A DNA stretch of 43,709 bases from Bacilli bacterium (GTDB lineage: Bacteria; Bacillota_I; Bacilli_A; RF39; UBA660), in contig JAZRRD010000092.1 of assembly GCA_045650425.1 (NCBI GenBank), forward strand, positions 1 to 43,709, given 5' to 3'. The position numbers and the translations under genes were made by a program. The notes beneath the pieces were generated by a model. The model had not been told where the DNA came from and did no database searches. It saw only the letters and a list, made by a program, of their open reading frames with translations. Below, piece after piece: positions 4,309 through 42,606 of the stretch (positions are counted from its first letter, which is position 1; each line of letters begins with the position of its first letter).

Positions 4309-4366
4309 AAAGATGCCCCTTCCTAATTAAGTTTGTATTTTATAATAAAACATCAAAAAAAACAAC

Positions 4367-5257: not shown

Positions 5258-5267
5258 ATTATCATCT

Positions 5268-6164: not shown

Positions 6165-6176
6165 AAGTCCCCTTCT

Positions 6177-7085: not shown

Positions 7086-7969
7086 AATACTCTTCCCTTT
7101 TGAAATCCTGCTGCACCTGGATATAATACTTTTTCTGTACAAGTTACTTTTCTATCAACTGAGTTTGACAATACTTCTTTTATAAACGTATGGTGAAAGA
7201 AAGTTAAAATAATTTCACCAGGATCTTTTAAGTTTGTATCATATATTGATTGAAATAAATCTAATCCAGCATTTACATTTTTTTCTAAATCATACTTTCT
7301 AAATATATCATCGTAATAATCTAAAATGTTAGAAAGATAAATTAAATCATATTTTCCACATTCTAACGGAAGTTGTGTAATATCGCGATAATTAAATGAT
7401 ATATTTGAAGCTTTTAGATTTTTTTTTAATTTTTTATAGTTTTTATCATTTATAAGATAATTACATCGCTTATCTATTTGCAGATCTGCTGCAGCATCTC
7501 CACACACAAAATCAAAAACACTAGCTTCTACTCCTTGTTGTTTCAAATTATAAAATAATTCTTGCCAAAATTTTTTATACTTCTCTTCAGCGCATGAAAT
7601 AATATATTTTTCTAAGTCATAGTTACGTTCGCTATATTTAAAATTAAACAATTCGTAAAAATCATCGTATTTTAAAACGTCAATAGCAGTTTTCTTAAAA
7701 CCGAGAGTGTAATATTCAGCAATTCTATTACAATCAAAGGTATCTATATTTTTTATTCCTTTTAAAATCAGTTCAAATATTTGATCCCCGCTCGCTAAAA
7801 CACCTAACACCTTTTCATTCCCCTTAAGATTAAAGAAATTCCAGACAGCTGCAATATTCTCATTTGTAAAAGAATACGCATAACTATATTCAGTATGTAA
7901 TTTGGCCGCAAATTGATAAATTTCCATTGTTTCTTTTATATCTTTTTCTATTTGTTCTGATTTTGTCAT
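7073..7969 (-). CDS. array paralog P4, DUF3419/BtaA-like putative SAM-binding protein
   Basis: 298 aa. RBS AAAAGGAGAAG lies inside the P3 end, with the ATG 2 nt after the P3 stop. Closest to P2 (MTKSEQIEKDI.. versus MTVSEQREKDI..; both end GRVLWKK). Confidence 0.85.
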   Translation of the reverse strand: MTKSEQIEKDIKETMEIYQFAAKLHTEYSYAYSFTNENIAAVWNFFNLKGNEKVLGVLASGDQIFELILKGIKNIDTFDCNRIAEYYTLGFKKTAIDVLKYDDFYELFNFKYSERNYDLEKYIISCAEEKYKKFWQELFYNLKQQGVEASVFDFVCGDAAADLQIDKRCNYLINDKNYKKLKKNLKASNISFNYRDITQLPLECGKYDLIYLSNILDYYDDIFRKYDLEKNVNAGLDLFQSIYDTNLKDPGEIILTFFHHTFIKEVLSNSVDRKVTCTEKVLYPGAAGFQKGRVLWKK

Positions 7970-7971
7970 GT

Positions 7972-8892
7972 TTACTTCTCCTTTTTAAGGGTATATCCCA
8001 TTGTTGACTCACGCCCCATTATATATTTGTGTTCTCTTAAAAATTTGTCTTCTAACATCACAGACATAAATCTATCCACAAGATCAATTAGAAGAATTTC
8101 GCCATTTATATTTAAATTTTCATTATAAATTTTTTTAAGTATATCTAAAGCTTTCTTTTTGTTTCCACAAAAGAATTCAGTATAATATTCCATTACATTA
8201 GACAAATATATTAAATCATATTTTTTATTAAAATTATTTGGAACATCTACAATTGATGATTGTTTAAATGTTATATTGGCTTTTGCTAATTTTTGTTGTA
8301 ATTCATTATATTTTTCTATGTCTTTCATATATGAATTAGGAATTCTACATATAGAACTTAATCTGTCAGCACGATTTGCAAAATGAAATACACTGGGATT
8401 AAAACCATGTTGTTTTAAATTATAAAACAATTCTTGCCAAAACCATTTATATTCATCTTCCATATTTTCAATAACATATTGTTCTATATCTAAATGTTGA
8501 CAGTTATGGGTTTTATCGTAATATTCTTTATAATATTCAAAAAGTTTATTGTAATCTTCAAAACTTAAACATTCGATAGCTCTCTTTTTAAATCCTAAGG
8601 CATAATATTCTGTTAATCTGTTTATATCAAATGTGTCTATATCTTTTAGACCTCTTTGCACCAAATGAAATACTTGATCTCCACTTGCTAAAATACTTAA
8701 TGCTTTGGTCTCTAGTGTAAGAGTTACAATTTTTAAAAATGTCTCAACTGATTCATTAGTTAAATGATAAAAGCTAGCATATTCTGTAAATTTTCCGGAT
8801 ATTTCAAACGATTTACTACAATATCCATCTAAATATAATTTAATTGCTGCTTCCAAGTCTTTTCTTCTTTGTTCACTAATTACTTTTTCCAT
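7972..8892 (-). CDS. array paralog P3, DUF3419/BtaA-like putative SAM-binding protein
   Basis: 306 aa starting MEKVISEQRRKDLEAAIKLY. Overlaps the P2 stop by 13 nt. Closest to P5. Confidence 0.85.
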   Translation of the reverse strand: MEKVISEQRRKDLEAAIKLYLDGYCSKSFEISGKFTEYASFYHLTNESVETFLKIVTLTLETKALSILASGDQVFHLVQRGLKDIDTFDINRLTEYYALGFKKRAIECLSFEDYNKLFEYYKEYYDKTHNCQHLDIEQYVIENMEDEYKWFWQELFYNLKQHGFNPSVFHFANRADRLSSICRIPNSYMKDIEKYNELQQKLAKANITFKQSSIVDVPNNFNKKYDLIYLSNVMEYYTEFFCGNKKKALDILKKIYNENLNINGEILLIDLVDRFMSVMLEDKFLREHKYIMGRESTMGYTLKKEK

Positions 8893-9797
8893 AATACTCT
8901 TCCTTTTTCAAGACCTAAAGCATCAGAATACCTTACCTTTTTAGTACAACTAATTTTTGTTGGAACAAATTTAGCAGCTCTTTTTCTGCTTAATATCTCA
9001 TCAACGAAAACACCCCTAAAACAAGTTAATAATATTTCACCTGGTTTTTCTAAATTTACATCATATATTTTTTGAAGCAATTCTAATGTGCTAGATAATG
9101 CATTGAGCTCTGGTTGTTCAGAATATATATCATTAAAATAATCCATGATATTAGAGATATAAATAAAATCATATTTACCATACTCTGTAGGAATATTTTT
9201 AATATCATTATATTTGAATGTTATATTTGATTCCTTTAGGTTTTTTTGAAGTTTTGTATAATTTTCATTAGTTTTTAGATAATTACATCTATTGTTTAAA
9301 AGCGCATCTTGAATGTGTTCCCCTCTTACAAAATCAAAGACACTTGCATTAATACCCTTTTGTTTTAAACTGTAAAATAATTCTTGCCAAAACTTTTTAT
9401 AATTTTCTGGAGCACATGAAATCACATAATCCTCCATCTCTGATTTTTTTTCGTTTCTTTTCTCATAATTAAATAAATCTAAGAATTGATAATAGTTCAA
9501 GGCTTCTATTGCTATTTTTTTAAAACCCAAAGTATAATATTCAGCAATTCTATTGCAATCAAACGTATCTGCATTTTTTATTCCATTTAAAATCATATTG
9601 AAAAGCTGATCTCCACTTGCTAAAACACTTAATAATTTTACACTATCATCAAACTTGAAAAAATTCCATACACTATCAATATCTTCGTTTGTAAAAGGAT
9701 AAGCATAACTATATTCAGTATGTAGTTTTACAACTTCATAAGAATACATATTTATTGCTTCTATTATATCTTTTTCTCTTTGCTCTGATACGGTCAT
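8880..9797 (-). CDS. array paralog P2, DUF3419/BtaA-like putative SAM-binding protein
   Basis: 305 aa with RBS AGAGGGTGA. The ATG is 4 nt after the P1 TGA stop. Same motif set. Confidence 0.85.
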   Translation of the reverse strand: MTVSEQREKDIIEAINMYSYEVVKLHTEYSYAYPFTNEDIDSVWNFFKFDDSVKLLSVLASGDQLFNMILNGIKNADTFDCNRIAEYYTLGFKKIAIEALNYYQFLDLFNYEKRNEKKSEMEDYVISCAPENYKKFWQELFYSLKQKGINASVFDFVRGEHIQDALLNNRCNYLKTNENYTKLQKNLKESNITFKYNDIKNIPTEYGKYDFIYISNIMDYFNDIYSEQPELNALSSTLELLQKIYDVNLEKPGEILLTCFRGVFVDEILSRKRAAKFVPTKISCTKKVRYSDALGLEKGRVLWKK

Positions 9798-9801
9798 TTA
9801 A

Positions 9802-10689
9802 TCACCCTCTTTTTTTTAAGACATAACAAAGGTGTTTTGCATTATTAAAGTTTTTCTTTATTCTTTCAGCATCTGGAACTGATTTATATATTTCTTCGTC
9901 AAAATAACTACATAAATCTGTAAATATTATTTGGCCATTTTTATATAGGTTATTATCATATATATTCGTTAAAAGTATTTTAGCAAATTCTTGTTCAAAA
10001 TAGTCTATTATGTTTGATAAATATATTAAATCATATGCAGGGAATTTTATTGGCAGTTCTACTATATCTGATTGCCAAAAATTAATAGATGTAGAAGGTA
10101 ATTTATTTTGAAGAGTTTTATAATTGTTTTCATTTTTCAAAAAGCTCGGTTTATTAAAATCTTTTTGTTTAACATCCAAAGCAAAGTGAAATACACTTGC
10201 TTCATATCCATACTCTTTTAAAATGCGCTTAATTTCTTTCCAAAACCATTTATATTCTTCATCCATATTTTCTACAACATAGTCTTCTATTTCAGATTTT
10301 ATATTATAGAACTTACATTCTAATCCATCATACGAAAAATTAAACAAATCTAGATATTCTTGATAATCCAAACATTCTATTGCTCTTTTTTTGAATCCTA
10401 TTGTGTAATATTCTAATAAGGCATTAATATCAAATGTATCTATATTGATAGCTCCTCTAAATATCATTTCAAATATATGATCTCCACCAGCTAATACACT
10501 TAAAATGTTTTTATCTTCATATTTTGTTCTAATATCAAATATATCTCGTATTGGTTCATTTGTAATGTAATAATATCTCGAATATTTTGAAAACTCAGGT
10601 TTTAATTCAACTCTACCTTGTTGATATAATTTTAAATATAAATCAATAGTTTTATCTAAATCTTCTTGTCGTTGCTCGGATATAACCAT
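9802..10689 (-). CDS. array paralog P1, DUF3419/BtaA-like putative SAM-binding protein (first gene of the operon)
   Basis: 295 aa with RBS AAAGGGGAG. Motifs LSVLAGGDHIF, DTFDINALLEYYTIGFKKRAIECL, EEYKWFWKE, AYDLIYLSNIIDYF. Confidence 0.85.
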   Translation of the reverse strand: MVISEQRQEDLDKTIDLYLKLYQQGRVELKPEFSKYSRYYYITNEPIRDIFDIRTKYEDKNILSVLAGGDHIFEMIFRGAINIDTFDINALLEYYTIGFKKRAIECLDYQEYLDLFNFSYDGLECKFYNIKSEIEDYVVENMDEEYKWFWKEIKRILKEYGYEASVFHFALDVKQKDFNKPSFLKNENNYKTLQNKLPSTSINFWQSDIVELPIKFPAYDLIYLSNIIDYFEQEFAKILLTNIYDNNLYKNGQIIFTDLCSYFDEEIYKSVPDAERIKKNFNNAKHLCYVLKKRG

Positions 10690-15918: not shown

Positions 15919-16959
15919 ATGAAAAAACTTATTTATATTTTTACAATCGCATTATTTATCATCTTACCATGCAATGTAAATGCTGCCTTAGAAGTAAATA
16001 CACCTTGTGACGATATAAAAACTGATGGAAAAAATCAATTTAAAACTTGCTATATTGATATTAAAGTAACAGAAGATACAGCACTATATAGCACAAGTGG
16101 TAAATTTACTATGATAAATACTAGTTTAAAAGGTAATATTGAATCCGGAGACAAAAGAATTAAAATTACAAATAATAATTTAGACAATTTAACATTTGTA
16201 TCAGAAACACCAATAAAAAATGAAACTGTTAGAATTGCTAAATTTACTATTTATTTAGCAACAAATGGAGAAAAATGTATAGTTCAATGGGAACCTAAAA
16301 TATATGGTACTAATTATTCATGTACAATTGAAAATGGTTATTATTATGACAAGAATGGTAACTCAGTAACAGAAACAGAATATAATAAACAATGTAACCC
16401 ACATTATTGTGAAATAATAGATGATACATATTTTGACAAAAGTGGTAATATTGTTGATAAAAATGAATACAGTAAACAATGTGAAAAGCATTACTGCGAA
16501 ATAATTGATAACACATATTTTGATAAAAATGGTAATGTCGTTGATAAAAATGAGTATAGCAAACAATGTGAAAAACACTCATGTGAAATAATTGATAATA
16601 CTTATTTTGATAAAAATGGTAATGTCGTTGATAAAAATGAATATAGCAAACAATGTGAAAAACACTCTTGCGAAATTGTAAATGGCGTATATTTTGGAAA
16701 AGATGGTAATATTATTACAGATAAAGAATATGATAAACAATGTAATAAACATTTTTGTAAAATAATTGATGGAACATATTTTGGTAAAAATGGAGAGATA
16801 ATTTCTAAAGCAGAATACAATGTTCAATGTCCTACTGATAATCCTCATACATCTGGAAATAGCATATTTGGATATGCATTAATAGCAACTCTAATTACTA
16901 CTTTTATATCAATAATTTTATGTATTAAACAAAATAATAAAAAAGTTTACAAAATATAG
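15919..16959 (+). CDS. secreted repeat protein with C-terminal cell-wall sorting signal (putative sortase B substrate)
   Basis: N-terminal signal peptide (MKKLIYIFTIALFIILPCNVNA), six 29-aa Cys-bracketed repeats, then NPHTSG, a hydrophobic segment and the basic tail KQNNKKVYKI. RBS AAGGGAG. Confidence 0.8.
   Translation: MKKLIYIFTIALFIILPCNVNAALEVNTPCDDIKTDGKNQFKTCYIDIKVTEDTALYSTSGKFTMINTSLKGNIESGDKRIKITNNNLDNLTFVSETPIKNETVRIAKFTIYLATNGEKCIVQWEPKIYGTNYSCTIENGYYYDKNGNSVTETEYNKQCNPHYCEIIDDTYFDKSGNIVDKNEYSKQCEKHYCEIIDNTYFDKNGNVVDKNEYSKQCEKHSCEIIDNTYFDKNGNVVDKNEYSKQCEKHSCEIVNGVYFGKDGNIITDKEYDKQCNKHFCKIIDGTYFGKNGEIISKAEYNVQCPTDNPHTSGNSIFGYALIATLITTFISIILCIKQNNKKVYKI
16321..16842 (+). repeat. six tandem 87-bp coding repeats
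   Basis: Consensus C(E/T)I(I/V)(D/N).(T/G)YF(D/G)K(N/D)GN.V.(D)K.EY.KQC.KH. (29 aa). Units 3 and 4 (16495-16581 and 16582-16668) are nearly identical at the DNA level. Confidence 0.85.
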
Positions 16960-24707: not shown

Positions 24708-25538
24708 ATGAAAAAAAGACTTAAATTAAAAAAAGAAGGCAGAATATTTTTTGGAATTATTTTTATCATATCTTTTATTTTATTTATCTATTCTTTTATT
24801 AATATTTATAAGTGGCATCACGATAATAAACATACCGATAACCAAGTAGAAATAATCATTAACAAAGTTAAAATACAAGAAGTCAAAGACAATAATAATA
24901 CTGAAATTATAAACTCTAAGACTAAAGAACCAGAAAATTCTCCTTATTGGACTTATATTAAAATGCCACTTATTAATGTAAATTTTGATGAATTAAGAAA
25001 AGTTAACAATGAAACAATTGGTTGGATAAATGTTGCCGGTACTAATGTTAATTATCCGTTTGTTCAAACTAAAGATAATGATTATTATTTAAATCATTCA
25101 TTTGACAAAACTAAAAATAAAGCAGGATGGATATTTTTAGATTATCGAAATAGTATCATAAACCTAAACAAAAACACCATTATTTATGGACATTCTCGTG
25201 TTAACAATACTATGTTTGGTTCATTAAAAAACACTTTAAATAACAATTGGTTTAAAAATAAAGATAATCACATAATAAAACTTTCTACTGATGTAGAAAA
25301 TTCGCTATGGCAAATATTTTCTATTTATACAATTCCAACAACAAATGATTATATTAAAACTGATTTTAATAATGAAAATGATTTTTTAAATTTTATTAAC
25401 ACAATAACTAAGCGAAGCATATACAAATTTAACAGTACAATAACCGAATACGATAACATAATAACACTATCAACCTGCCATAAAACTAATGAACGATTAG
25501 TTATACATGCTAAATTAATTAAAAAAGAAGCTAAATAA
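24708..25538 (+). CDS. srtB: class B sortase
   Basis: N-terminal TM segment. Motifs GWINVAGTNVNYPFVQTKDNDYYLNHSFDK, IIYGHS and TLSTCH (catalytic Cys). Confidence 0.85.
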   Translation: MKKRLKLKKEGRIFFGIIFIISFILFIYSFINIYKWHHDNKHTDNQVEIIINKVKIQEVKDNNNTEIINSKTKEPENSPYWTYIKMPLINVNFDELRKVNNETIGWINVAGTNVNYPFVQTKDNDYYLNHSFDKTKNKAGWIFLDYRNSIINLNKNTIIYGHSRVNNTMFGSLKNTLNNNWFKNKDNHIIKLSTDVENSLWQIFSIYTIPTTNDYIKTDFNNENDFLNFINTITKRSIYKFNSTITEYDNIITLSTCHKTNERLVIHAKLIKKEAK

Positions 25539-27712: not shown

Positions 27713-28804
27713 CTAGTATATAAAAATTAAATTTTTGTAATTAAAAGTCCATTCAAAATTAGTCATTAATTTAACTTCACCATATATATCATTAAACATA
27801 TACAAAGAATCATCAATTAAATAATAAACTTCATTTTGATCATAATATACAATTTCTTTTATCTTACCTGTTGAAACTAGTTCTCTATATTCATCTATTA
27901 CTCTGTACAAATTACCATCTTGTAGTTTAAACTTAATAGGATTATCATAGGTAAATATTCCCTTATTATTAATTAATTTTTGTAAAGAAACTTTTTCAAA
28001 GTTACTATTAATTAAAGTAGTAGGATTAACATTTCTTAATTTTTCTTTATGGGGAACTAATTCATATTCTTTTTTTTCTTTTCGATCAAAAAGATATAAA
28101 CTATTTTCGTACGTTCCCATTATGTAACTATCAAAATAAATTTTTTTACCAAGGTTCCATGTTGATTTTTTATTATTTTCTACATTATATAAATGTACAG
28201 ACTCAAAATAATAATCATTTGTATAATCAGGAATTATAAAATAATCATTTATCTTAGCTGCTAAGTTAATATCATAAACATCATTTTCAAAAAAATTAAT
28301 TGATTTAGTTACTTTTTTATTCATAATATCTAAGCCTTGATAGTTCCATATTAAAAATGTTTTATCATTTAAATAGTTTATAGAAATGTTTTTGTATGAA
28401 CTATTATTAAACTCTGGTTTTTGATTATACTTCTTATCTAATTTTTTAGAAAGATTATCAACTAAGTGGTAATTTAAATATGTTTCATTATTTTTACACA
28501 ATGGATAAGTATTTAATTCATCACTTATTCCTAATAAACATATATTTTCTTTTTCTTCGATTATATCTATTTTATTTATTAATTTACGTGACTTAGTATA
28601 ATCATTATATAAAATTTGTTTAAAAGACATATCTTTATATTTATATTCCATTATGTAATACTTACCTTTTTTGTTGTAAGTTTCTTTTACTAAAACATCA
28701 TCCAATTTATATTCTAAATTATAATTTTTAGGAGTTAAATACACAAAAAGCAAAATAATGAACAAAATAATTATTATAAAAAATATTCTAGTTATTTTTC
28801 TCAT
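27713..28804 (-). CDS. membrane-anchored hypothetical protein
   Basis: 363-aa ORF with an N-terminal TM anchor (ITRIFFIIIILFIILLFVYL) and a Tyr/Asn-rich beta-type remainder. Confidence 0.7.
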   Translation of the reverse strand: MRKITRIFFIIIILFIILLFVYLTPKNYNLEYKLDDVLVKETYNKKGKYYIMEYKYKDMSFKQILYNDYTKSRKLINKIDIIEEKENICLLGISDELNTYPLCKNNETYLNYHLVDNLSKKLDKKYNQKPEFNNSSYKNISINYLNDKTFLIWNYQGLDIMNKKVTKSINFFENDVYDINLAAKINDYFIIPDYTNDYYFESVHLYNVENNKKSTWNLGKKIYFDSYIMGTYENSLYLFDRKEKKEYELVPHKEKLRNVNPTTLINSNFEKVSLQKLINNKGIFTYDNPIKFKLQDGNLYRVIDEYRELVSTGKIKEIVYYDQNEVYYLIDDSLYMFNDIYGEVKLMTNFEWTFNYKNLIFIY

Positions 28805-29243
28805 TATTTATTTCCCTAGTTTTATATTCTTTCTTTTTTGCCATCATGTATTCGCTTATATGTGTTACTATTTCATCTAATGATTTTTTAGGTAAATTAG
28901 AAATAGTAACAATTTCTTTAACTGTATCTAAATTTAATTTACCCCAAAATAATCCAGCATAAATAGATAAATCATTATATAAATCTGGTGTAATCGAGGT
29001 TAAAAAATATCCCCATACCACTCTTTTTTGAGCAATTAAAATTCTTTTACTAGTTATTGCTACCACACAAGTACTAACCCAATCAAAAGGATTATCATTT
29101 TTTTGACCAGGAAAAGCATATATTACACTTTCACTCGGATTTAGATGTTGTTCAATTACTTTAGAGTGTTTTTTTAATCTCCAAGATATACCTCCACTAT
29201 ATTTCTGTTTAAATAATTTAACATGATCATAAACTGTTGCCAT
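28788..29243 (-). CDS. bacterial PH-domain-like protein (YokE-like)
   Basis: VVAITSKRILIAQKR ... LDTVKEIVTISNL resembles the bPH pattern. Overlaps the next gene by 17 nt. Confidence 0.5.
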   Translation of the reverse strand: MATVYDHVKLFKQKYSGGISWRLKKHSKVIEQHLNPSESVIYAFPGQKNDNPFDWVSTCVVAITSKRILIAQKRVVWGYFLTSITPDLYNDLSIYAGLFWGKLNLDTVKEIVTISNLPKKSLDEIVTHISEYMMAKKKEYKTREINNEKNN

Positions 29244-29294: not shown

Positions 29295-29696
29295 TCATTT
29301 AAATAAGTTCAATTTTCCTATTATTGGTAATTCTATTTTTTGTTTGCATAAGACATTTACTATACCATTTATAGCAATCACTAAGATTAAAACTCCAACT
29401 AACAAAACACATATTTTTAAATACATTGGAGTTTCTTCTCCGCAATAATAAGTTATTCCATATAAATAATTAGTACAATCTCTTAATACAGTAATTTTAT
29501 CTAATAAAATTATAGATATTAAAGTAAATAATAATTCTACCAAAAACAAATTCATTCCTTGACGCGCATGAAAATTAAGCCATTTGCTTTTTTTCTTATC
29601 TTTAGAATAATAAGCTATCGGAGGCAAAATATATGCTAAAACAGCCATTTTTTGATTTTGCTCAATATCTTTATTGTCTATTTTCTTTCGAACCAT
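29295..29696 (-). CDS. DUF4870-like small membrane protein
   Basis: AYILPPIAYY...HARQGMNLFL motif with 3 TM segments. The start is 1 nt after the upstream stop. Confidence 0.55.
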   Translation of the reverse strand: MVRKKIDNKDIEQNQKMAVLAYILPPIAYYSKDKKKSKWLNFHARQGMNLFLVELLFTLISIILLDKITVLRDCTNYLYGITYYCGEETPMYLKICVLLVGVLILVIAINGIVNVLCKQKIELPIIGKLNLFK

Positions 29697-29697
29697 T

Positions 29698-31050
29698 TTA
29701 ATCTACCAATTCCATTACTACTCTAGATTTAAACATTTTATTTAAATCTATATTTTGATTAACTCCAGTTTCTCTAAATTCATACTTTATAGTGTAATAA
29801 TAAGTATGATTTGCAGGTATCAATATATTTGATAATAATAAACCATTTGAATAAGGAGCTTGCTTATCTTTTAAAAGTGTTGTAGTACCATTATCTAAAC
29901 TAAATACTATATTATTTGTTTTAGTAATAGTATTTACTACATCTTTCCAGTTCAAATTTAATCTAACAGAATTTTTAGACTCATTAGTAATAGCAAATAC
30001 CTGCGTATCATTCCATCCAGGTTCTATTCCTTGAGCATCAATATTTTTTACACTCTTTAATACTACTCTTCCAGCATTGTTAGTCTGAACAATAATAGTT
30101 AAATCGTTACTAGGAAGGTTGTCAACAGAACATTGAATTTCTATATTTTTATCAGCTTTTCCATCATTATTTGTATCGCAATTAATATCACAGACACCAT
30201 CATTATTTTTATCAATATTTAATTCAGGCCATCCATCTTTATTAGTATCAACATTTTTAGATGCTGTAATCATATTAGCATCAGCTTTTTTATCACCATT
30301 TGAATCGATATTAAAATAAGAAACGTAATCACGGCAATAATCAATATTATAATCTGGCTTTTTATCTTTATTTGTATCACAGTTAACATCACAAACTGTA
30401 TCTCTATCTCTATCTATATTAATTTCAGCATATCCATCATCGTTAATATCACAATTGAAATCACAAATATCATCATTATTTGTATCGATATTAATATCTG
30501 CTATTCCATCACCATCTAAATCAATATTTTTATCTGGCCATCCATCATTATTTATATCACAATTCAAATCACAAATTCCATCTTTATTATTATCTTCATT
30601 AATTAAATTATAGTCAGGCTTTTTATCATTATCTGTGTCTATCCCAAAATGTGAAGCTTTATCTTTATTATAATCAACATTATAATCTGGCTTTTTATCG
30701 TTGTTTGTATCGCAATTTATATCACAAACTTTATCACCATTTGTATCTATGTTAATATCAGCAACCCCATTATTATCCAAATCACAATTATTATCACAAA
30801 CATCATCATCATTTAAATCACAATTTAATTTACAATTATGATGAACATTATCATGATGAATTTTTCTATAAGAGAAAGTAGCCCCAAATAAAGTAACAAG
30901 AAGAATTAATATACAAAGAATCAAAATAACAATTGATTTCCTTCTTTCTTCTGCCTTCTCCTCTTCTTCTAAAATTAAATATTGCTCTTCATAATCAATA
31001 GGTTCAAAATCCTGACTACTAAATTTCTTTTTCTCTTCATTTTGATTCAT
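29698..31050 (-). CDS. SipW-type-signal protein with Asp/Asn/Cys-rich calcium-type repeats and a C-terminal beta domain shared with its two upstream neighbours
   Basis: TM segment plus GATFSY, then about 235 aa of CD.NCD.N.DG.(P)D.NID repeats. The C-terminal end NQNIDLNKMFKSRVVMELV parallels QSYNMNKKFISSIKVENV and NDQINKTFTGEISVANV. Confidence 0.8.
   Translation of the reverse strand: MNQNEEKKKFSSQDFEPIDYEEQYLILEEEEKAEERRKSIVILILCILILLVTLFGATFSYRKIHHDNVHHNCKLNCDLNDDDVCDNNCDLDNNGVADINIDTNGDKVCDINCDTNNDKKPDYNVDYNKDKASHFGIDTDNDKKPDYNLINEDNNKDGICDLNCDINNDGWPDKNIDLDGDGIADINIDTNNDDICDFNCDINDDGYAEINIDRDRDTVCDVNCDTNKDKKPDYNIDYCRDYVSYFNIDSNGDKKADANMITASKNVDTNKDGWPELNIDKNNDGVCDINCDTNNDGKADKNIEIQCSVDNLPSNDLTIIVQTNNAGRVVLKSVKNIDAQGIEPGWNDTQVFAITNESKNSVRLNLNWKDVVNTITKTNNIVFSLDNGTTTLLKDKQAPYSNGLLLSNILIPANHTYYYTIKYEFRETGVNQNIDLNKMFKSRVVMELVD
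30130..30834 (-). repeat. coding repeats: D/N-rich, Cys-paired, thrombospondin-type-3-like calcium-binding motifs, with a ~110-aa super-repeat present twice
   Basis: NIDTNGDKVCDINCDTNNDKKPDYNVDY... versus NIDRDRDTVCDVNCDTNKDKKPDYNIDY... Confidence 0.75.
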
Positions 31051-31098
31051 AACGACACACTCCTAGTCTATGAACTGAGTATAACATAAAAATGTTGA

Positions 31099-31680
31099 TT
31101 ACTCAACATTTTCGACTTTAATTGAACTAATAAATTTTTTATTCATATTATAACTTTGATCTTTATTTAAAGATACATAATGAAACACAACTTTCCAATA
31201 TTGTGTAACTTCCTTATTGGCTTCAACTTCAATTTTTTGATTGTCAATCAAAGTGTTCGTACCAACTAGTGTAGTTGCATCACCATTTGCTATTTTATTC
31301 CATGTAGATTTATCCTCGCTCATATAAACTTCATATAAAAGTTCAGGAGTTTTTTCGTCACTATTAGGGTCATATTCAAAAGTATTTTCAGATATATACC
31401 AATTAATATCATATAAACTACTTACTGTTGCTCTATTTTCTCCGACTAATTTTACCGAAAAAATTAGTTCATCACTATATCCAGGTTGATTAGCAATTAA
31501 CTCTAATCCACTTCCAGTATCAAAATAAATATAAGCATTACTACTAGTTTCAACATTTACTTCTGTTTTTTGATTATGACTAATAGTTGATGAAAAATAA
31601 GCAAATGTAAGCCCAACAACAGACAAACATAAAATTGATATAGCTAAAATACTTAATATTAAAGTTCTTCTATTTTTCAT
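31099..31680 (-). CDS. SipW-dependent-type signal peptide protein (TasA/camelysin-like secreted subunit)
   Basis: ORF-track frame 31099-31692. Start moved to the ATG at 31680 (MKNRRTLIL), 4 nt after GGTGGT. N-terminal ...VVGLTFAYFSS matches the SipW-cognate signal pattern. Confidence 0.75.
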   Translation of the reverse strand: MKNRRTLILSILAISILCLSVVGLTFAYFSSTISHNQKTEVNVETSSNAYIYFDTGSGLELIANQPGYSDELIFSVKLVGENRATVSSLYDINWYISENTFEYDPNSDEKTPELLYEVYMSEDKSTWNKIANGDATTLVGTNTLIDNQKIEVEANKEVTQYWKVVFHYVSLNKDQSYNMNKKFISSIKVENVE

Positions 31681-31723
31681 TATTACCACCATAATAATAA
31701 TATCAAATATCTTATATTATAGC

Positions 31724-31751
31724 AAATAAAAAAAGATGTTTTAAACATCTC
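31724..31751 (-). terminator. Rho-independent terminator after the 217-aa subunit gene
   Basis: Minus strand: AGATGTTT/AAACATCT stem followed by TTTTTTTATTT. Confidence 0.6.
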
Positions 31752-31762
31752 TTTAAACTATA

Positions 31763-32416
31763 CTATTCAGCAGTGTAAGTAAGTTGCCCGCCATTTTCAC
31801 ATCTAACATTTGCTACTGAAATTTCACCAGTAAATGTTTTATTAATTTGGTCATTTTGTTCTTGTTCTAAATTATAGAATTGAGCTGTAAATGTCCAAGT
31901 TTGTGTAGTAGCAGTTGAATCAGCACCGTTATCAGTAATAGTATAACTTCCTAAAGTTGCAGGTAATTTATCAACATTAGTTTCACCGAAACTTTGTGTT
32001 TCATCACTATCATCAGTTCCTTTTAATGTGAATTCTAAAGCATTAGCATTTACTTCAGCAACTTTTGTACTTAAAGCATATTTTTCAGCAGAAGTTTCTT
32101 TCCATACTAAATCATAAGTACAAGTAGCTTCTCCGTCTCCAGCTTGTAATGAAACTGTAGTAGTTTTTACATCACTATCAACGAATTGTCCTTTTTGAGC
32201 AAGTGACATATTTTCATTTGTAATAGCATCTAACACAAGTTCGTTATTTGCTGTATAAGTAAATACATCGTTTGCTTTAGCTGTAGTTGCAGTTACAGTA
32301 GTTTTTTCTGTACTAGTAACACTTGCAGAGAAATATGCGAATGTTGCCCCCACAACTGCTACCAATAAAGTTGCGATAGCGATAACTGTTAATAATACTG
32401 TATTTTTCTTTTCCAT
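31763..32416 (-). CDS. SipW-dependent-type signal peptide protein, probably abundant subunit
   Basis: N-terminal ...AVVGATFAYFSAS. Strong RBS AAGGAGGAG. Thr/Ala-rich and GC-richer than its neighbours. Followed by a terminator. Confidence 0.8.
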   Translation of the reverse strand: MEKKNTVLLTVIAIATLLVAVVGATFAYFSASVTSTEKTTVTATTAKANDVFTYTANNELVLDAITNENMSLAQKGQFVDSDVKTTTVSLQAGDGEATCTYDLVWKETSAEKYALSTKVAEVNANALEFTLKGTDDSDETQSFGETNVDKLPATLGSYTITDNGADSTATTQTWTFTAQFYNLEQEQNDQINKTFTGEISVANVRCENGGQLTYTAE

Positions 32417-32501
32417 TTTCTTTACTCCTCCTTCTATTATTGATATTACCAGAAATTACACTTTTGTGCAATATTATTTTGATAATTTTACAAAAGTTTT
32501 T

Positions 32502-35000
32502 TTATTTCCATACAGCGTCAAAATACAAACCATAATCAACACTGATTTTATCACCAGGTTGATAATACTTGTTATCCGCTGTATTGTACCATCCTACAAA
32601 TTTTTTACCATTCTTGAAGACAGGTTTAGGCAATGTAAATATACTTTGTTCTTCTAGCTTAAGTCCTTTTTTACCACTAGCCAAATCATCGCTAGTAGTT
32701 ACCATCCAAACATTTTTATTATTCTTAGCCTTCATTGGTTCCAATGCCAATCTATCTAATAACCAGGAACCATATTCAATATCTAATAAACCCTGGTTAT
32801 ATAAATGCTTAGTTTCAGGCATTCTATATCCTGCAAATAAATGTCTTGCAAACATGTGTGTCCAATCCTCATAATAGAATAAATCGTTAGTTTTTAAAAA
32901 TTCTTCTCTTTCGCTTGTCCACATAATATTATCATCAAATGAAAACATATTAGATACTACTAAAAATGCATCAGTAGTTAAAATATCATTTGCCAAAACA
33001 TTATGATATCTATTCGAAGTAACATGATAATACTTAACTGGTTTGTTTATTATATTTATACTTTTTACCGTAATAATTTTCTTCTGATTATTCTTATCAA
33101 ATTTAACAACTCTTGTTCCAACATCAAAATTATCTTTATCCATTACAGAAACATATCTTTTTAAATCAACATTATAAATCCCATGATCTCCTATTGTATT
33201 TAAATATGTTCCATCTGAAAATGTTATTTTTTGATATGATTCTCCTACTGACTCTTTTTCAATCCAAATAGGATATTCATATACAACTCTACCTAAATCA
33301 TAACTATAAGACATTATTAAGTCATCATAACGTATATCTTCAATGTTTTTATATTTACCATTAGCCAATTTAATCTTTGTACCTTCAGCTAAACAAGTAG
33401 TTTTTTTCTGTGCAGTACCAGAAATAGAAATATCTCCAGTCACAGTTTTAGTAATATTAACATCACCAGCTCCACTAGAAGAATCATATGTATAATCTGT
33501 ATTAACAGTTAAAGCGCTACCTCCCATAGAAACATCAATAGACTCAGGCAATTTATATTTATCTACTGGCTCCAATTTACCTACATAAGTATTATATATA
33601 TAAGCTTTAGTAGGACTATCTGAAGATAAATTCATATTTGAAAGTCCCGATGTAATAACATCAAATTCCCACTTCAAACTAATACTAGGAGAAGCTACAC
33701 AATATGTATTTTCTACTCCAGAAAAGCAATCTTCAACTCCAGAATTATTTTCATCCACGCCATAAACTTTAATATAATAATTATGATTATTAGTGACCAT
33801 ATTAGATTTATGAGTTGCCAAGAAATTAGAATCTAAAGTGATACTTTGACTTGTGTAATTAGCATCTATCTCATAAGAAGCAATTTGACTTCCTGTCGTG
33901 GAATCAATCAACAATACATAATAATTTTGAACATTAGTTCCTCCCTCATCTAGCCTTTTCCATGAAGTATTAATCTTTAATGAACCAGTAGCTTGGTCAT
34001 AAGCCCCAACACTCATAACAACATTACCAATTTCTACTTTATCATTATCTTCTTCTTCAGTTATATCTACTTTAATATTAATATCTCCTGCTACTATAGG
34101 ATCTACCTCATTCGAATTCAAGGTAATCCTCGTACTTGCACTTTCCGATGTAAATATACTTGATGGATTAACTACCAAACAAACTTCATAATTAGCAATA
34201 TTACTACTAGAATCTAATTCACTTGGAGCTCCTATATGAAATTCTGATAAAGGATTGCCATTAGTATCAACTAAATAAAAATTTTCATTACCAGATTTCA
34301 AATTAAAATTCCTAGCATATTTATATGTATTCATAACATTTACATGAAAACAGGCAGAATTATTATCGCCAGATAAATCTACATAATTAGTATCAATCGA
34401 AGCAACTAATTCTCCAGAATTATCTAACGAACTATTAATGTTAGTTCCACCCCCTACACCTATACTTACATTCTTCTTAGAACCAGTATAAATATTTAAA
34501 GTAATTACTACAACCCCTGATTCACCAGGTGAAAGAGTTGTACCCAATCGAATCGTATTACTTGAATGATCAATATCATGTGTATAAGATACATCAACCG
34601 CAGCGTCATCACTATTTCCAGTTGAAACATTAATCTCAGGATTCATAGTAATTCCAGTAAAAGTATAATCATATAAACTATTATTTTCTAAATAAATTAA
34701 ATAAGTCCCTTGTTCTGTACGTTCGGAATTATTATGCTTAATTGAATAATTTAACCCAATATTTCCATCAGCATCTAATTGCAAAACATTATTAGCTAAT
34801 CTTCCATCAGCACTTCCAATACTAGCATTAGTATCTAACTCTATTCTTACAATTTCAACCTTACCAATAGGACTAATAGTTAATTTTCCGGTTAAATTCA
34901 ATCCCTGATTATAAACAGCATATCCCACAGTTATTGTAAAACATAAAATAACCATTAAAATGGTTAATATTATGTTAGATTCAATTCTTTTCTTTTTCAT
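32502..35000 (-). CDS. large secreted/anchored protein: class-2 N-terminal signal, beta-rich repeats, internal Hint (BIL) domain, C-terminal Listeria-Bacteroides-type repeat
   Basis: ORF-track frame 32502-35048. Likely start is MKKKRIESNIIL at 35000, with 35012 as an alternative. It overlaps the upstream gene end. The C-terminus KFVGWYNTADNKYYQPGDKISVDYGLYFDAVWK matches the G(Y/F).F.GWY...LYA.W repeat. Confidence 0.8.
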   Translation of the reverse strand: MKKKRIESNIILTILMVILCFTITVGYAVYNQGLNLTGKLTISPIGKVEIVRIELDTNASIGSADGRLANNVLQLDADGNIGLNYSIKHNNSERTEQGTYLIYLENNSLYDYTFTGITMNPEINVSTGNSDDAAVDVSYTHDIDHSSNTIRLGTTLSPGESGVVVITLNIYTGSKKNVSIGVGGGTNINSSLDNSGELVASIDTNYVDLSGDNNSACFHVNVMNTYKYARNFNLKSGNENFYLVDTNGNPLSEFHIGAPSELDSSSNIANYEVCLVVNPSSIFTSESASTRITLNSNEVDPIVAGDINIKVDITEEEDNDKVEIGNVVMSVGAYDQATGSLKINTSWKRLDEGGTNVQNYYVLLIDSTTGSQIASYEIDANYTSQSITLDSNFLATHKSNMVTNNHNYYIKVYGVDENNSGVEDCFSGVENTYCVASPSISLKWEFDVITSGLSNMNLSSDSPTKAYIYNTYVGKLEPVDKYKLPESIDVSMGGSALTVNTDYTYDSSSGAGDVNITKTVTGDISISGTAQKKTTCLAEGTKIKLANGKYKNIEDIRYDDLIMSYSYDLGRVVYEYPIWIEKESVGESYQKITFSDGTYLNTIGDHGIYNVDLKRYVSVMDKDNFDVGTRVVKFDKNNQKKIITVKSINIINKPVKYYHVTSNRYHNVLANDILTTDAFLVVSNMFSFDDNIMWTSEREEFLKTNDLFYYEDWTHMFARHLFAGYRMPETKHLYNQGLLDIEYGSWLLDRLALEPMKAKNNKNVWMVTTSDDLASGKKGLKLEEQSIFTLPKPVFKNGKKFVGWYNTADNKYYQPGDKISVDYGLYFDAVWK
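32976..33395 (-). other. Hint / bacterial intein-like domain (about 140 aa) inside the 848-aa protein
   Basis: Block A: CLAEGTKIKLANGKYKNIEDI. Block B: TYLNTIGDHGIY. Blocks F/G: VKYYHVTSNRYHNVLANDILTTD. No terminal HN+Cys/Ser/Thr splice junction. Confidence 0.65.
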
Positions 35001-36027
35001 TATGCGCACCATTTTTTTGAAGAATATATCTCCAAGCAACCTTATCATTTATTAATATAAATTCACTTTTATTTTTATATTGTTTATAGTTTATTGGTTG
35101 TCTAACTTCACTATGTGCATCAATTAATTCATTAAATTCAGATACATCAATTACATTTAAACTTTTTAAATTAATTGGGGTATTAAGATTTACGATAATA
35201 TAATCATATTCTTTCATTATTTTTTTTAATTTTTCATCATAAGAATTTTTATCTTTTATTTTTCTAGTTCTAAAACTTAACAAAAATACTTCTACAGCCA
35301 TCACCCCAACATATATAATAACAGCCATTTTGTATCTATTTAATGTTTCTTCTTTATTATCTTCAACTTTTAATATTTTAGTTTTTTCACTTTCATCCAG
35401 ATTTACAGGAACTTCTATAGTAGCTTGTGTCAAAGGAATCGATAATGATGAAACACTTTCTTCATTAAACAAATTTCCATCTTTTCTTACATTGTTTTTA
35501 AAGACTAATTCTATCAATAAAGAACCATCAAATCCAATCTTATAATTTTGTCTAAACTCTAATAATAAATCATTATATTTTTGATAATCAATTCTTACAG
35601 ATTCACTATTATATAAATTGGATTGTTCATCAAAATTAATAGTCTTCATTTCACTTAAAATATATTCTTTTTCCCAATATTTAACATTACTTTCATTAGG
35701 TTTAGTTGCCAAAATAGTACCTTTAATATAATAAGAATAACTTCCTGAAAGTCTTTCATTAAATGAAACATTATTATTAAATGTTACATCTAAATAATCA
35801 ATCAAAGTAGTAATATAAGCTTTTCCTTCATCAAGATAATTTTCTTCAAAAAATTCATTTTCTTTTAAATAAACTTTGTAATCAATTGTATTTTTTTCTT
35901 GATAAGTAACATAAGAAGGCTTTTCTTTAGATAATGTAATATATTTATACACAAAATAACTACCAACTAAAAATGTTAAAATTAATAAACTAATATATAC
36001 AATTTTGACACTTTTTAATAGTTTCAT
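34981..36027 (-). CDS. two-TM accessory protein of the locus (possibly DUF5305-like)
   Basis: 348 aa with an N-terminal TM, an extracytoplasmic region of about 200 aa, a second TM (MAVIIYVGVMAVEVFLLSF) and a cytoplasmic tail of about 100 aa. The family name comes from my memory of SipW neighbourhoods and is unverified. Confidence 0.6.
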   Translation of the reverse strand: MKLLKSVKIVYISLLILTFLVGSYFVYKYITLSKEKPSYVTYQEKNTIDYKVYLKENEFFEENYLDEGKAYITTLIDYLDVTFNNNVSFNERLSGSYSYYIKGTILATKPNESNVKYWEKEYILSEMKTINFDEQSNLYNSESVRIDYQKYNDLLLEFRQNYKIGFDGSLLIELVFKNNVRKDGNLFNEESVSSLSIPLTQATIEVPVNLDESEKTKILKVEDNKEETLNRYKMAVIIYVGVMAVEVFLLSFRTRKIKDKNSYDEKLKKIMKEYDYIIVNLNTPINLKSLNVIDVSEFNELIDAHSEVRQPINYKQYKNKSEFILINDKVAWRYILQKNGAHNEKEKN

Positions 36028-36029
36028 AA

Positions 36030-37163
36030 CTAACCTCCTAACGTTTCACTTAATTTAACTGTAGGATATCCGATATATTTAACAACTAATCTCACAACAC
36101 CTAATACATTTTTTTCATAGACATCTAAATTATCTACTATATCGTTATTATCCCCTTTTGTAGTATATTTTAACATTCCCTTTTCTCGTTCTATTTTTAC
36201 AACTCTATGAGTTATAATTTCGCCATTTATTTGAAAAACAAGTATATCATCCACTTTTACTACTTTTGGATCAATTTTTTCATATAATACCGCATCCCCA
36301 TAATAATATATTGGATTCATGGAATCAGAGCCGATAGCAATAAGATGATATTTCGTTAAACCCGAAACAAATACAATAAGTACACCTGCTAATCCAGCTG
36401 TCAAAATAAAGAAAAATCTTCGCACATAATTTTTAGCATATAATGAATATTTTTCTTTATAAGAAACACATTTATATACTTGTTTATATATGGCAAACGG
36501 TAACAATATACCAAAAATAGATGATATATAATTTCCAAGTGCTGGAGTAATAGGTACAACATAAACATATAACTCCATACATAAATGTAATATTAATGTG
36601 GGAAGCAATCCTACTTTTTCAGTTATATATGTATACAAGCACTCTCTTGCAATACATGGTAATAACACAACAGACACCATACTAAATATTTGTGATGGTG
36701 ATTTCAAAATCATATTATTAACCATTATTATAGTATTTAATAAAATAAATAAAATTGTTAAAATTATTGTTTGTCCCTTAGATGGTTCTCTTTTTAATAT
36801 AATATACCTTATCAAATCAGAACAAACAATATTTAAAATAACAGGAAGTATATTCTTTAAAACTTTAACAAATTTTAAGGAAAATACGTTTTTTTCAAAT
36901 CCTGTAATTAATCCCAACAAATAGATTATTAAAATATACATCATTAAAGAAATTATTACAATTTTAGTTGTAGTAATCTTATAATAACTCTTGTCTTTTC
37001 TTATTCCCCATTTGGCAATCAAATAAATTAATAAAACAAATAATAAACCAAAAGATATTAAATCTATATATTGCGGTATTATCTTAAATATTATTGTTTC
37101 AAATACTATAATAAACATTAACAATATTAATATAATATTTATTTCCTTTTTATTTCTTTTCAT
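36030..37163 (-). CDS. ER/archaeal-type signal peptidase I (SipW-like) fused to an N-terminal ~8-TM domain of unknown function
   Basis: C-terminal motifs GSDSMNP (catalytic Ser), ITHRVV (His) and TKGDNN. The N-terminal ~270 aa are polytopic. Start moved to 37163 (MKRNKKEIN) because the ORF-track ATG at 37202 lies inside an intergenic hairpin. Confidence 0.8.
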   Translation of the reverse strand: MKRNKKEINIILILLMFIIVFETIIFKIIPQYIDLISFGLLFVLLIYLIAKWGIRKDKSYYKITTTKIVIISLMMYILIIYLLGLITGFEKNVFSLKFVKVLKNILPVILNIVCSDLIRYIILKREPSKGQTIILTILFILLNTIIMVNNMILKSPSQIFSMVSVVLLPCIARECLYTYITEKVGLLPTLILHLCMELYVYVVPITPALGNYISSIFGILLPFAIYKQVYKCVSYKEKYSLYAKNYVRRFFFILTAGLAGVLIVFVSGLTKYHLIAIGSDSMNPIYYYGDAVLYEKIDPKVVKVDDILVFQINGEIITHRVVKIEREKGMLKYTTKGDNNDIVDNLDVYEKNVLGVVRLVVKYIGYPTVKLSETLGG

Positions 37164-37189
37164 AGGTGCACATCCTACCAACAAATTAT

Positions 37190-37215
37190 ATTCTGCTACC
37201 AAAAGGTAGCAGAAT
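37190..37215 (-). terminator. stem-loop between the first subunit gene and the peptidase gene (partial terminator or stabiliser)
   Basis: Minus strand: ATTCTGCTACC-tttt-GGTAGCAGAAT (11-bp stem) followed by ATAATTTGTT, a weak U tract. Confidence 0.45.
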
Positions 37216-37230
37216 AAATTCTTTATTTAA

Positions 37231-37803
37231 TTAAACTTGTTCAAAATATAAAGATGCAGTTAGATTTAAAGAAGCTCCATTAGTTGGTAAATCTGTAGAT
37301 GCATCAGGCATAACATACTCTACTCTAACTTTTAAAGTTTTACTTGTTGGAGTACCAGATGTAGCTTTTCCAAGAATAACACCTTGAACAGATTCATCAG
37401 TTGCAGTATATTCTTTACCATCATAAGTAACTACATAATTTATATACTTATCAACATCAGCAGTCATTCCACCCAAAGTTACTTTCTTTAATGCAGCATC
37501 AAATGTTCCAGCGTTTTCTACATTAATTGTAAATTCATAGAAATCACCAGGATTATTCAATGTAACATTATAGTTAACACTTGTTCCTGCAATAGTTGGT
37601 GAAACAGCATTAACACTACTTTGAGATTCAGCGTAACTTTCAGTATTAAAATGTACATCCCATCTTGCAGTACCTACATTAGTTGTACCTGTAACATTTA
37701 AAGTTTGGTTATATGCAGCAGCAGCAAAACCTACAGTCATTACTACCAATGCAACAGCTAATGCAATAATTGCAACTCCTTGTCCATTTCTTTGTCTCTC
37801 CAT
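37231..37803 (-). CDS. secreted TasA-like subunit with class-2 N-terminal signal (probable major subunit)
   Basis: Strong RBS AAGGAGGA. N-terminus ...VVMTVGFAAAAYNQTLNVTGT. NNPGDFYEFTINVENAG resembles TasA LKPGDKLTKDFQFENNG. GC-richer than its surroundings. Confidence 0.8.
   Translation of the reverse strand: MERQRNGQGVAIIALAVALVVMTVGFAAAAYNQTLNVTGTTNVGTARWDVHFNTESYAESQSSVNAVSPTIAGTSVNYNVTLNNPGDFYEFTINVENAGTFDAALKKVTLGGMTADVDKYINYVVTYDGKEYTATDESVQGVILGKATSGTPTSKTLKVRVEYVMPDASTDLPTNGASLNLTASLYFEQV

Positions 37804-40725: not shown

Positions 40726-42606
<1,881 letters not shown>

Follow-up and report, generated by a model that had tools for sequence, protein, structure and literature searches.

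Eight contiguous genes, here called A to H, lie on the minus strand of contig JAZRRD010000092.1 (GenBank assembly GCA_045650425.1) from an uncultured Bacilli bacterium. The stretch analysed, positions 1 to 43,709 of this contig, is referred to as the window, and all positions are given in it. Its GC content is ~26%, and the closest matches of its proteins come from metagenome-assembled genomes of uncultured organisms labelled "Bacilli bacterium". A first-pass annotation had read the genes as a single fibre-forming system, not recognised as any described one, in which one SipW-type signal peptidase serves five substrates. The positions it assigned to the eight open reading frames (ORFs) were all confirmed. 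However, our analysis makes it probable that the region consists of two adjacent, separately inherited modules: an AbpX/Tafi-type donor-strand fibre cassette (A-B-C-D, 32502-37803; module 1) and a second surface module (E-F-G-H, 29295-32416; module 2). The features, in order of transcription, are the following.

37231..37803, minus strand: gene A, 190 amino acids (aa); major pilin candidate, AbpX-like (TasA superfamily)
37189..37216, minus strand: stem-loop between A and B, 12 bp with a weak U tail; dG -22.9 kcal/mol, z -4.7
36030..37163, minus strand: gene B, called at 377 aa; polytopic archaeal/ER-type signal peptidase I
34981..36027, minus strand: gene C; DUF5305 accessory protein with two transmembrane segments, TafG-like
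32502..35000, minus strand: gene D; large minor subunit, whose longest ORF reaches 35048
32970..33395, minus strand: Hint domain of D, residues 552-693 (848-aa numbering); bacterial intein-like (BIL)
32505..32969, minus strand: C-terminal domain (CTD) of D, residues 694-848; one Flg_new-like repeat at its end
31763..32416, minus strand: gene E, 217 aa; abundant-subunit candidate of a second family
31724..31754, minus strand: hairpin and U7 tract after E (intrinsic terminator); dG -12.3 kcal/mol, z -2.6
31099..31692, minus strand: gene F; paralog of E, minor-subunit candidate
29698..31050, minus strand: gene G; acidic tail, membrane helix, D/N/C-rich repeats and an F-like C-terminal beta domain
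29295..29696, minus strand: gene H; DUF4870 small membrane protein (Pfam E 1.2e-6)

Gene neighbourhoods in related genomes set the two modules apart. A profile scan covering one genome per species identified 80 loci holding a B homolog, and the ORFs of these loci were searched with the window proteins. A single-sequence query with B yielded nothing, while an alignment-based query yielded the loci. Among these species-level loci A was found in 78, B in 79, C in 77 and D in 59 (55 at E<1e-10). Where present, the genes always followed the order A-B-C-D; A stood before B in 76 of the 80 loci and C after B in 77. An E-family gene within 10 kb of the cassette was found at one of the 80 loci (L046), a count with which an E-family hidden Markov model (HMM) agreed, and a G-like gene within 10 kb at one additional locus (L069). 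At L046 (3349-6932), genes for a homolog of G (E 3e-125), an E/F-like protein and a short (203 aa) SipW-like peptidase lie upstream of A-A-B-C. Five other loci (L081-L084, L087) keep the block Tex-E-F-G-H-J-LysM-L, in which F follows E, H follows G, and G is strongly conserved in synteny (E 1e-125 to 1e-174). No peptidase was found within 10 kb of E-F-G-H at any of the five, and further E homologs are solitary genes. The window backbone matches this Tex...LysM block, with A-B-C-D between Tex and E. Since E-family neighbours are lacking across cassettes and the E-F-G-H block is peptidase-free elsewhere, we regard E-F-G-H as an independent module placed beside the cassette. The A/D and E/F/G families also differ in fold-level sequence, their sole common part being the signal peptide. 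Thus, a conserved neighbourhood exists for A-B-C-D, which are kept together, but not for E-F-G-H with the cassette.

A and E each have a strong ribosome-binding site (AAGGAGG for A, GAAGGAGGAG for E) and a following hairpin, as the first-pass annotation had noted for both. Related loci repeat both the strong ribosome-binding site of A and its stem-loop, with hairpins like that after A (minimum free energy <= -15 kcal/mol within 70 nt) in 30 of 76 of them; the stem-loop probably acts as an attenuator and keeps A high relative to B. The terminator hairpin after E is 11 bp long and AT-rich, and is joined to the U7 tract. A promoter-like TATAAT box lies between this terminator and F, and the spacer between D and E holds a promoter-like TTGCAC...TGGTAATAT. 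A and E are indeed richer in GC than the other genes (0.33 vs 0.22-0.29), but their GC content at third codon positions is not raised; the excess is therefore an effect of amino acid composition and not of codon bias. At the far end of the run, G (450 aa) and H are separated by a single nucleotide, in line with the coupling proposed for this pair.

The C-terminal 110 aa of B match TIGR02228, the archaeal-type signal peptidase I model (78.6 bits vs a cutoff of 51.85), and S281, H319, D338 and D344 are invariant in 37 homologs; the SipW equivalog model reached 51.7 bits, below its cutoff of 190. By hydropathy, about eight hydrophobic segments precede the peptidase's own membrane helix, giving ~9 in total. 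The description of B as a dedicated SipW-type (archaeal/ER-type) peptidase fused to an eight-helix membrane domain is thus borne out. The N-terminal helices were also considered as a CPBP/exosortase-like protease; this was rejected, as they hold no invariant His or Cys in the 37 homologs. The only invariant residues there are G88, R119, P204 and P222, with E116 nearly so. C, a 348-aa protein, matches Pfam DUF5305 (PF17231; E 1.7e-15, 57.5 bits vs a cutoff of 29) and has two hydrophobic segments (residues 3-30 and 232-254), in agreement with its earlier description as a two-helix membrane protein.

The pilin candidate A has a signal peptide ending in MTVGFAAA, followed by the conserved strand AYNQTLNVTGT. 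In the family consensus, MSVGFA precedes and AYxQTLxIxGT follows the predicted cleavage site. Residues G25, F26, A27, L35, G39 and W48 are among the best conserved, all but the last being invariant or nearly so. Such conservation just past the signal peptide is expected for a donor strand and would be unusual for an ordinary mature N-terminus. A profile of 58 homologs matched AbpX in the PDB (9sj2_C, E 1.3e-4; 9rhp_A, E 8.6e-4). For 9sj2_C, profile positions 32-175 aligned to residues 5-152 of the 163 in the chain, an alignment that covers the entire mature domain and takes in the PG(D)...N.GT..A motif; beyond AbpX, no PDB match fell below 0.05. Single-sequence PDB searches with A, E and G returned nothing meaningful. 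Individual A homologs showed weak matches to DUF11/CARDB-type domains and, in 5 of 58, to Peptidase_M73. The AlphaFold2 model of A (pLDDT 87) is a beta-sandwich over residues 50-189, with residues 31-49 unstructured, and its Foldseek matches were weak: FimG (2e-3), the TasA fibre 8aur (1.2e-2, TM-score 0.34) and PapA (2e-2). Judged by profile homology, A is a putative AbpX-like pilin of the TasA superfamily, linked to TasA itself only remotely, through AbpX. Calling A "TasA-like" is apt at the profile level only.

In the large subunit D, an alignment of 37 homologs favours a start at 35000 (MKKKRIESN, 832 aa) over that at 35048. The protein consists of a signal peptide, an A-like pilin domain, beta domains, a fibronectin type III (FN3) domain matched in both PDB and Pfam, a BIL-type Hint domain and the CTD. 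At their N-termini, A and D both read ...VG(F/Y)A..Y-x-Q-x-L-x-x-x-G. The D N-terminus matched A in pairwise comparison (E 5e-4), and an HMM of the D N-terminal domain matched 89 non-D ORFs in 79 loci; the A proteins of related loci scored E ~1e-6 to 1e-18, a range taken from the first 80 matches listed. At loci that lack D, a protein of 500-650 aa after C has the same pilin-like N-terminal domain and no Hint.

The Hint domain, which had been assigned to an 848-aa protein (832 aa is the likelier length), is real and is the best conserved part of D in the 37-homolog alignment. It starts with CLAEGT and ends in ...HNVLANDILTTD; C552, L553, G556 and H622 are invariant in 37 sequences. The end follows the pattern ...Y(H/Y)N..AN..LTTD (ANDILTTD in the window), and intein blocks A, B and F are present. 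No terminal His-Asn and no +1 nucleophile were found in the 37 homologs, the next residue being variable. A Hint-only profile matched BIL2 (6tmm/6y75) over its full length (E 1.4e-8), with Cys at position 1 and His at the NH motif, and Pfam searches of the D homologs returned Hom_end_hint in 23 of 37 and Hint in 14 of 37. Matches to AXH cover only the first 25-60 Hint residues and were taken as a by-product of the Hint beta-hairpin. A BIL2-like Hint that lacks both the terminal His-Asn and the +1 nucleophile is predicted to carry out an N-S acyl shift at residues 551/552 and not to splice.

The CTD (~155 aa) is conserved, its terminal Flg_new-like repeat being a weak match, and it always accompanies the Hint: HMMs of the two domains matched an identical set of 51 loci. 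When D was searched against 1.84 billion representative proteins, 1911 relatives were returned at E<=1e-3 (126 at E<1e-30); among them, the Hint+CTD unit is again placed at the very C-terminal end of large proteins with BspA-type leucine-rich repeat (LRR), DUF285, Flg_new or pilin-like N-termini. Carriers include P0366, P0376, P0406, P0407 and P0409, and one has a type IV pilin N_methyl motif. Given its recurrence on otherwise unrelated large proteins, the Hint+CTD unit appears to serve surface proteins generally as a C-terminal module.

The proteins of module 2 form a family of their own. The N-terminal motif is GATFAYF in E, GLTFAYF in F and GATFSY in G, and the three proteins share the C-terminal motif Q...NK.F...(I/V).(V/M)..V, so that both the SipW-cognate-type N-terminus and the common beta motif reported for three proteins are present. 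The signal motif of E, GATFA with YFS after the cleavage site, is of the TasA/camelysin type, and the E/F/G motif G-x-T-F-A-Y-F-S is almost that of CalY. TIGR04088, the model of the SipW-cognate signal, scored 16.3 bits against its cutoff of 19 in the window E and gave no match to F or G; it came near threshold in 17 of 59 E-family members (best E 3.3e-4). E and F are full-length homologs (27% identity over 213 aa, E 3e-16), and residues 321-450 of G match F weakly (E 8.6e-5). For the E family, 1323 homologs were detectable. Its profile found no significant match in PDB or Pfam, M73 was not among its top 25 Pfam matches, and in these searches nothing but the signal peptide tied the sequences of E, F and G to TasA. 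Matches to T4 Hoc (E 0.052) and Wzz/TarH (E>0.01) were judged noise. Weak matches to the uncharacterised SAG1386/EF1546 surface-associated family were seen in 25 of 59 members. E/F/G were also considered as type IV pilins, given their near-invariant hydrophobic N-terminus, and this was rejected: neither a G followed by F-x-x-x-E nor an archaeal prepilin motif is present, and Pilin_N matched at E 0.4.

The AlphaFold2 model of E (pLDDT 86) is a beta-sandwich with residues 1-40 disordered, and its weak Foldseek neighbours are nearly all donor-strand pilins (CfaE, FimG/F, CupB6, CanA, AbpA, TasA and Saci_0406). G has an acidic cytoplasmic N-tail, one membrane helix with GATFSY, EF-hand/TSP3-like repeats and a beta domain. 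The view of G as a calcium-repeat protein holds as far as motifs go, with six D-x-[DN]-x-[DN]-G-x-x-[DN] loops in D/N-rich repeats and 17 Cys, but G has no family match to add to this; a match to the engineered lanthanide-binding tag of 2ojr was not significant. Judging from these features, module 2 is most likely a second surface polymer or coat, with E probably its abundant subunit, F a minor subunit and G a calcium-binding stalk or anchor. For removal of their signal peptides, E, F and G probably depend on a peptidase of the class to which B belongs. This is the least secure part of our account.

Next, module 1 was compared with described fibre systems. AbpX and Tafi loci with the same component set have been published (bioRxiv 10.64898/2026.01.04.697558; PMC11821415, PMC12337348), so the locus cannot be called new to description as a whole, and the A-B-C-D cassette, sharing their architecture, belongs to a known kind. 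Descriptions exist for the base system, but not for the host group, the subunit with Hint+CTD or the adjoining E/F/G family. In archaea and Bacillota, AbpX loci encode a signal peptidase I of ten helices together with a DUF5305 accessory protein, minor subunits and tip proteins (bioRxiv 10.64898/2026.01.04.697558). Module 1 resembles them in its pilin family (by profile), many-helix signal peptidase I, DUF5305 protein and extra pilin-like minor or tip subunit, and the predicted mature N-terminus of A likewise has an aromatic residue at position 2. Unlike in AbpX loci, the peptidase has ~9 helices by hydropathy and not 10, and no C-terminal helix; the cassette has no SLH or LPXTG anchor, sortase or c-di-GMP regulator; and the large subunit combines FN3, BIL-Hint and CTD, the terms "Hint" and "intein" not being mentioned in the preprint text. 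The hosts differ as well, being low-GC uncultured gut and rumen Bacilli. In AbpX of Pyrodictium abyssi, an acidic residue at donor-strand position 4 mediates Ca-dependent assembly (bioRxiv 10.64898/2026.01.04.697558). This position is Q in A, which makes Ca-triggered assembly doubtful.

The Tafi of haloarchaea, for which a cryo-EM structure is available (PMC12337348), comprise the TafD peptidase, TafG (DUF5305), a major pilin, an adapter and a two-domain tip with a pilin-like N-terminal part (PMC11821415). Like Tafi (TafA/TafC/TafE/TafF), module 1 sets a peptidase and a DUF5305 protein beside a small major pilin; common to both are also a larger subunit that resembles the pilin in its N-terminal domain and donor-strand assembly, predicted or solved, that uses no chaperone or usher. 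It differs in that its signals are Sec-type instead of Tat-type and in that TafD has four helices and a C-terminal Ig-like domain where B has an N-terminal block of ~8 helices; no TafF-like membrane anchor or TafB regulator is present. A and TafE showed no significant sequence match, and F reached NF052522 at no better than E 0.016. With tapA-sipW-tasA of Bacillus subtilis and CalY of B. cereus, the cassette has in common an ER-type Ser/His signal peptidase and, as predicted here, an N-terminal subunit strand exposed by cleavage. In contrast to tapA-sipW-tasA, B falls below the SipW equivalog cutoff, and the cassette has a DUF5305 protein and a polytopic peptidase domain as extra parts; no window protein matched Peptidase_M73 (PF12389), and no TapA-like protein was found there. 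The sipW-bsaA-bsaB-bsaC operon of Clostridium perfringens also joins SipW-linked TasA-like matrix subunits and a larger secreted accessory protein, but has neither DUF5305 nor a polytopic peptidase; its BsaA oligomers are locked by intermolecular isopeptide bonds, and BsaC has a VWA domain and not a Hint (PMC11580942). The Hint of D itself is closest to BIL2 of Tetrahymena BUBL1 in its N-terminal Cys, block-B His, block F (HN..AN..L) and lack of the canonical terminal His-Asn. BIL2 resolves its thioester onto a lysine, forming an isopeptide (PMC8616854). Unlike BIL2, the D Hint is extracytoplasmic, lies inside a pilin-like surface protein and is followed by the conserved domain of ~155 aa.

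Several observations weigh against the interpretation of the region as a donor-strand fibre cassette beside a second surface module. The AbpX match to A is remote (25 bits), and AbpX is absent from the top 50 Foldseek matches of A. Position 4 of the donor strand is non-acidic in the family consensus as well as in A. A membrane or wall anchor subunit is not evident in module 1, and searches of PDB and Pfam linked the E family by sequence to no protein of known function. The prediction of several secreted beta-sandwich subunits with conserved N-termini is supported, and donor-strand pilins (FimG, CfaE, CanA, AbpA, TasA, Saci_0406) dominate the Foldseek lists of both A and E, but all these matches are weak (E 3e-4 to 1e-2, TM-score 0.25-0.5). 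Could a single integrated system, in which B processes A, D, E, F and G and these co-assemble into one composite fibre or adhesin, fit the data better? We consider this improbable. The genes do form one contiguous run on one strand, no SipW-type peptidase other than B was seen in the vicinity of E, F and G within the window, and their TasA/camelysin-like motif needs such a peptidase; moreover, in each of the two nearest relatives a single contig (21,250 bp in one, 84,220 bp in the other) carries homologs of both E and B, and L046 has its G, E/F-like and short SipW-like genes upstream of the cassette. However, an E-family gene within 10 kb is lacking at 79 of the 80 cassettes, the five E-F-G-H loci do without a nearby peptidase and other E homologs stand alone. 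The two families have only the signal peptide in common, and E and F have promoter-like and terminator signals of their own. The cassette is thus self-contained, and the five-substrate system of the first-pass annotation is not upheld. It is possible, though we doubt it, that E, F and G do not polymerise at all and are monomeric surface or wall proteins (a coat, or adhesins on a Ca-stiffened stalk) with a generic Ig-like sandwich fold and merely a SipW-type signal. The weakness of the Foldseek matches of E, the want of a sequence link to a polymerising family, the weak SAG1386/EF1546 matches in 25 of 59 members and the many solitary E homologs would fit monomers. Pointing the other way, the top structural neighbours of E are nearly all donor-strand pilins, its disordered, conserved N-terminal segment and conserved C-terminal strand motif fit a donor/acceptor pair, and its expression signals are typical of an abundant structural protein.

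The role of the Hint+CTD unit raises two further possibilities. D might be a polymorphic-toxin-like effector whose Hint frees the C-terminal 155 aa, the pilin-like part serving only for display. Hint is a known releasing module before C-terminal toxins in polymorphic toxin systems (PMC3482391), and the Hint+CTD unit is indeed C-terminal on diverse large surface proteins. We nevertheless hold this to be highly improbable: the CTD is conserved and not polymorphic across the 51 Hint-bearing loci, and no conserved immunity-like gene follows D, the downstream genes being variable, which together argue against a toxin cassette. Furthermore, a Hint ending in LTTD lacks the terminal Asn and +1 nucleophile required for C-terminal cleavage, and the CTD terminates in the surface-protein repeat Flg_new. 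The other possibility, by analogy with cholesterol transfer in Hedgehog and Lys-isopeptide formation by BIL2, is that Hint+CTD is a general sortase- and ATP-independent module for the covalent attachment of surface proteins; we offer it tentatively and think it rather unlikely. In such a scheme, the Hint would turn the last peptide bond of its passenger into a thioester and the CTD would present an amine or hydroxyl acceptor, to which the passenger would be ligated. Candidate acceptors would be a stem peptide of peptidoglycan, a lipid of the membrane or a lysine in a further subunit of the fibre; the passengers would include the pilin-like part of D (500 aa) and, in other proteins, adhesins of the BspA-LRR, DUF285 and Flg_new types. 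If true, this would provide the fibre cassette with its otherwise missing anchor.

Herein, we outline how module 1 may work, starting from the component homologies, gene content, catalytic residues, conservation and module independence described above. A and D would leave the cell by the Sec pathway. B, assisted by C, would then cut the signal peptides of A and D after their common end VG(F/Y)A..., and the cut would expose the conserved N-terminal strand (A)Y-x-Q-x-L-x-(I/V)-x-G. The exposed strand would enter the beta-sandwich of the next subunit, whereby A would polymerise without ATP. Because D has the same strand and an A-like domain, it may enter the fibre a single time, whether at the tip, as initiator or at the base. 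The Hint of D would form a thioester at Thr551/Cys552 and detach the ~500-residue passenger from Hint+CTD, by either hydrolysis or transfer to an acceptor.

Variants of the cassette were seen among the 80 loci. Some genomes have two cassettes on one contig or tandem A genes (A-A-B-C); loci with a duplicated cassette or A, or without D, are L029, L040, L049, L057, L067 and L073, and L011, L024, L041, L062, L069, L072 and L075-L077. Six loci (L036, L039, L040, L064, L065, L079) have a GC content of 38-46%, against a median of 27% for all loci, and are mostly labelled Candidatus Saccharibacteria or Nanosyncoccus; judging from these, the cassette may occur across phyla. Loci labelled Muribaculaceae or Bacteroides have a GC content of 24-29%, and these bins are probably mislabelled.

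Other genes of the window were also noted. On the minus strand, positions 3421-10689 hold a tandem array of eight paralogous ORFs of ~295-325 aa, six of which match the N-terminal part of Pfam DUF3419 (E 1e-6 to 7e-13). A sortase gene lies at 24708-25538 on the plus strand (PF04203, E 1.8e-12), and a 346-aa ORF at 15919-16959 on the plus strand ends in NPHTSG, a hydrophobic stretch and a basic tail, a sortase-type sorting signal. No LPXTG-type sorting signal was found in A-H. Thus, the organism has sortase anchoring, and A-H do not use it. Beyond Tex, on the side of the cassette insertion, a large serine recombinase (Resolvase, Recombinase and Zn ribbon) is encoded at 40732-42606 on the plus strand. 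A bacterial PH-domain gene (bPH_3, E 2.7e-9; 28788-29243, minus strand) stands between H and J; L081-L084 and L087, with the same synteny in all other respects, lack it, which marks a second small insertion in this neighbourhood.

Keeping the two modules apart should prevent a misleading "five-substrate system" from entering annotation. The archaeal-style donor-strand machinery, comprising a polytopic signal peptidase, a DUF5305 protein and a TasA-superfamily pilin, was experimentally characterised only in 2025-2026. The Hint+CTD unit, found on many unrelated adhesin-like proteins, points to an unstudied route of surface-protein maturation or anchoring. The fibre cassette is widespread in small-genome uncultured Bacilli of the gut and rumen, and may extend to Saccharibacteria. 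To our knowledge, no surface appendages are known in these Bacilli; the cassette is therefore a concrete candidate for adhesion or matrix building in them.

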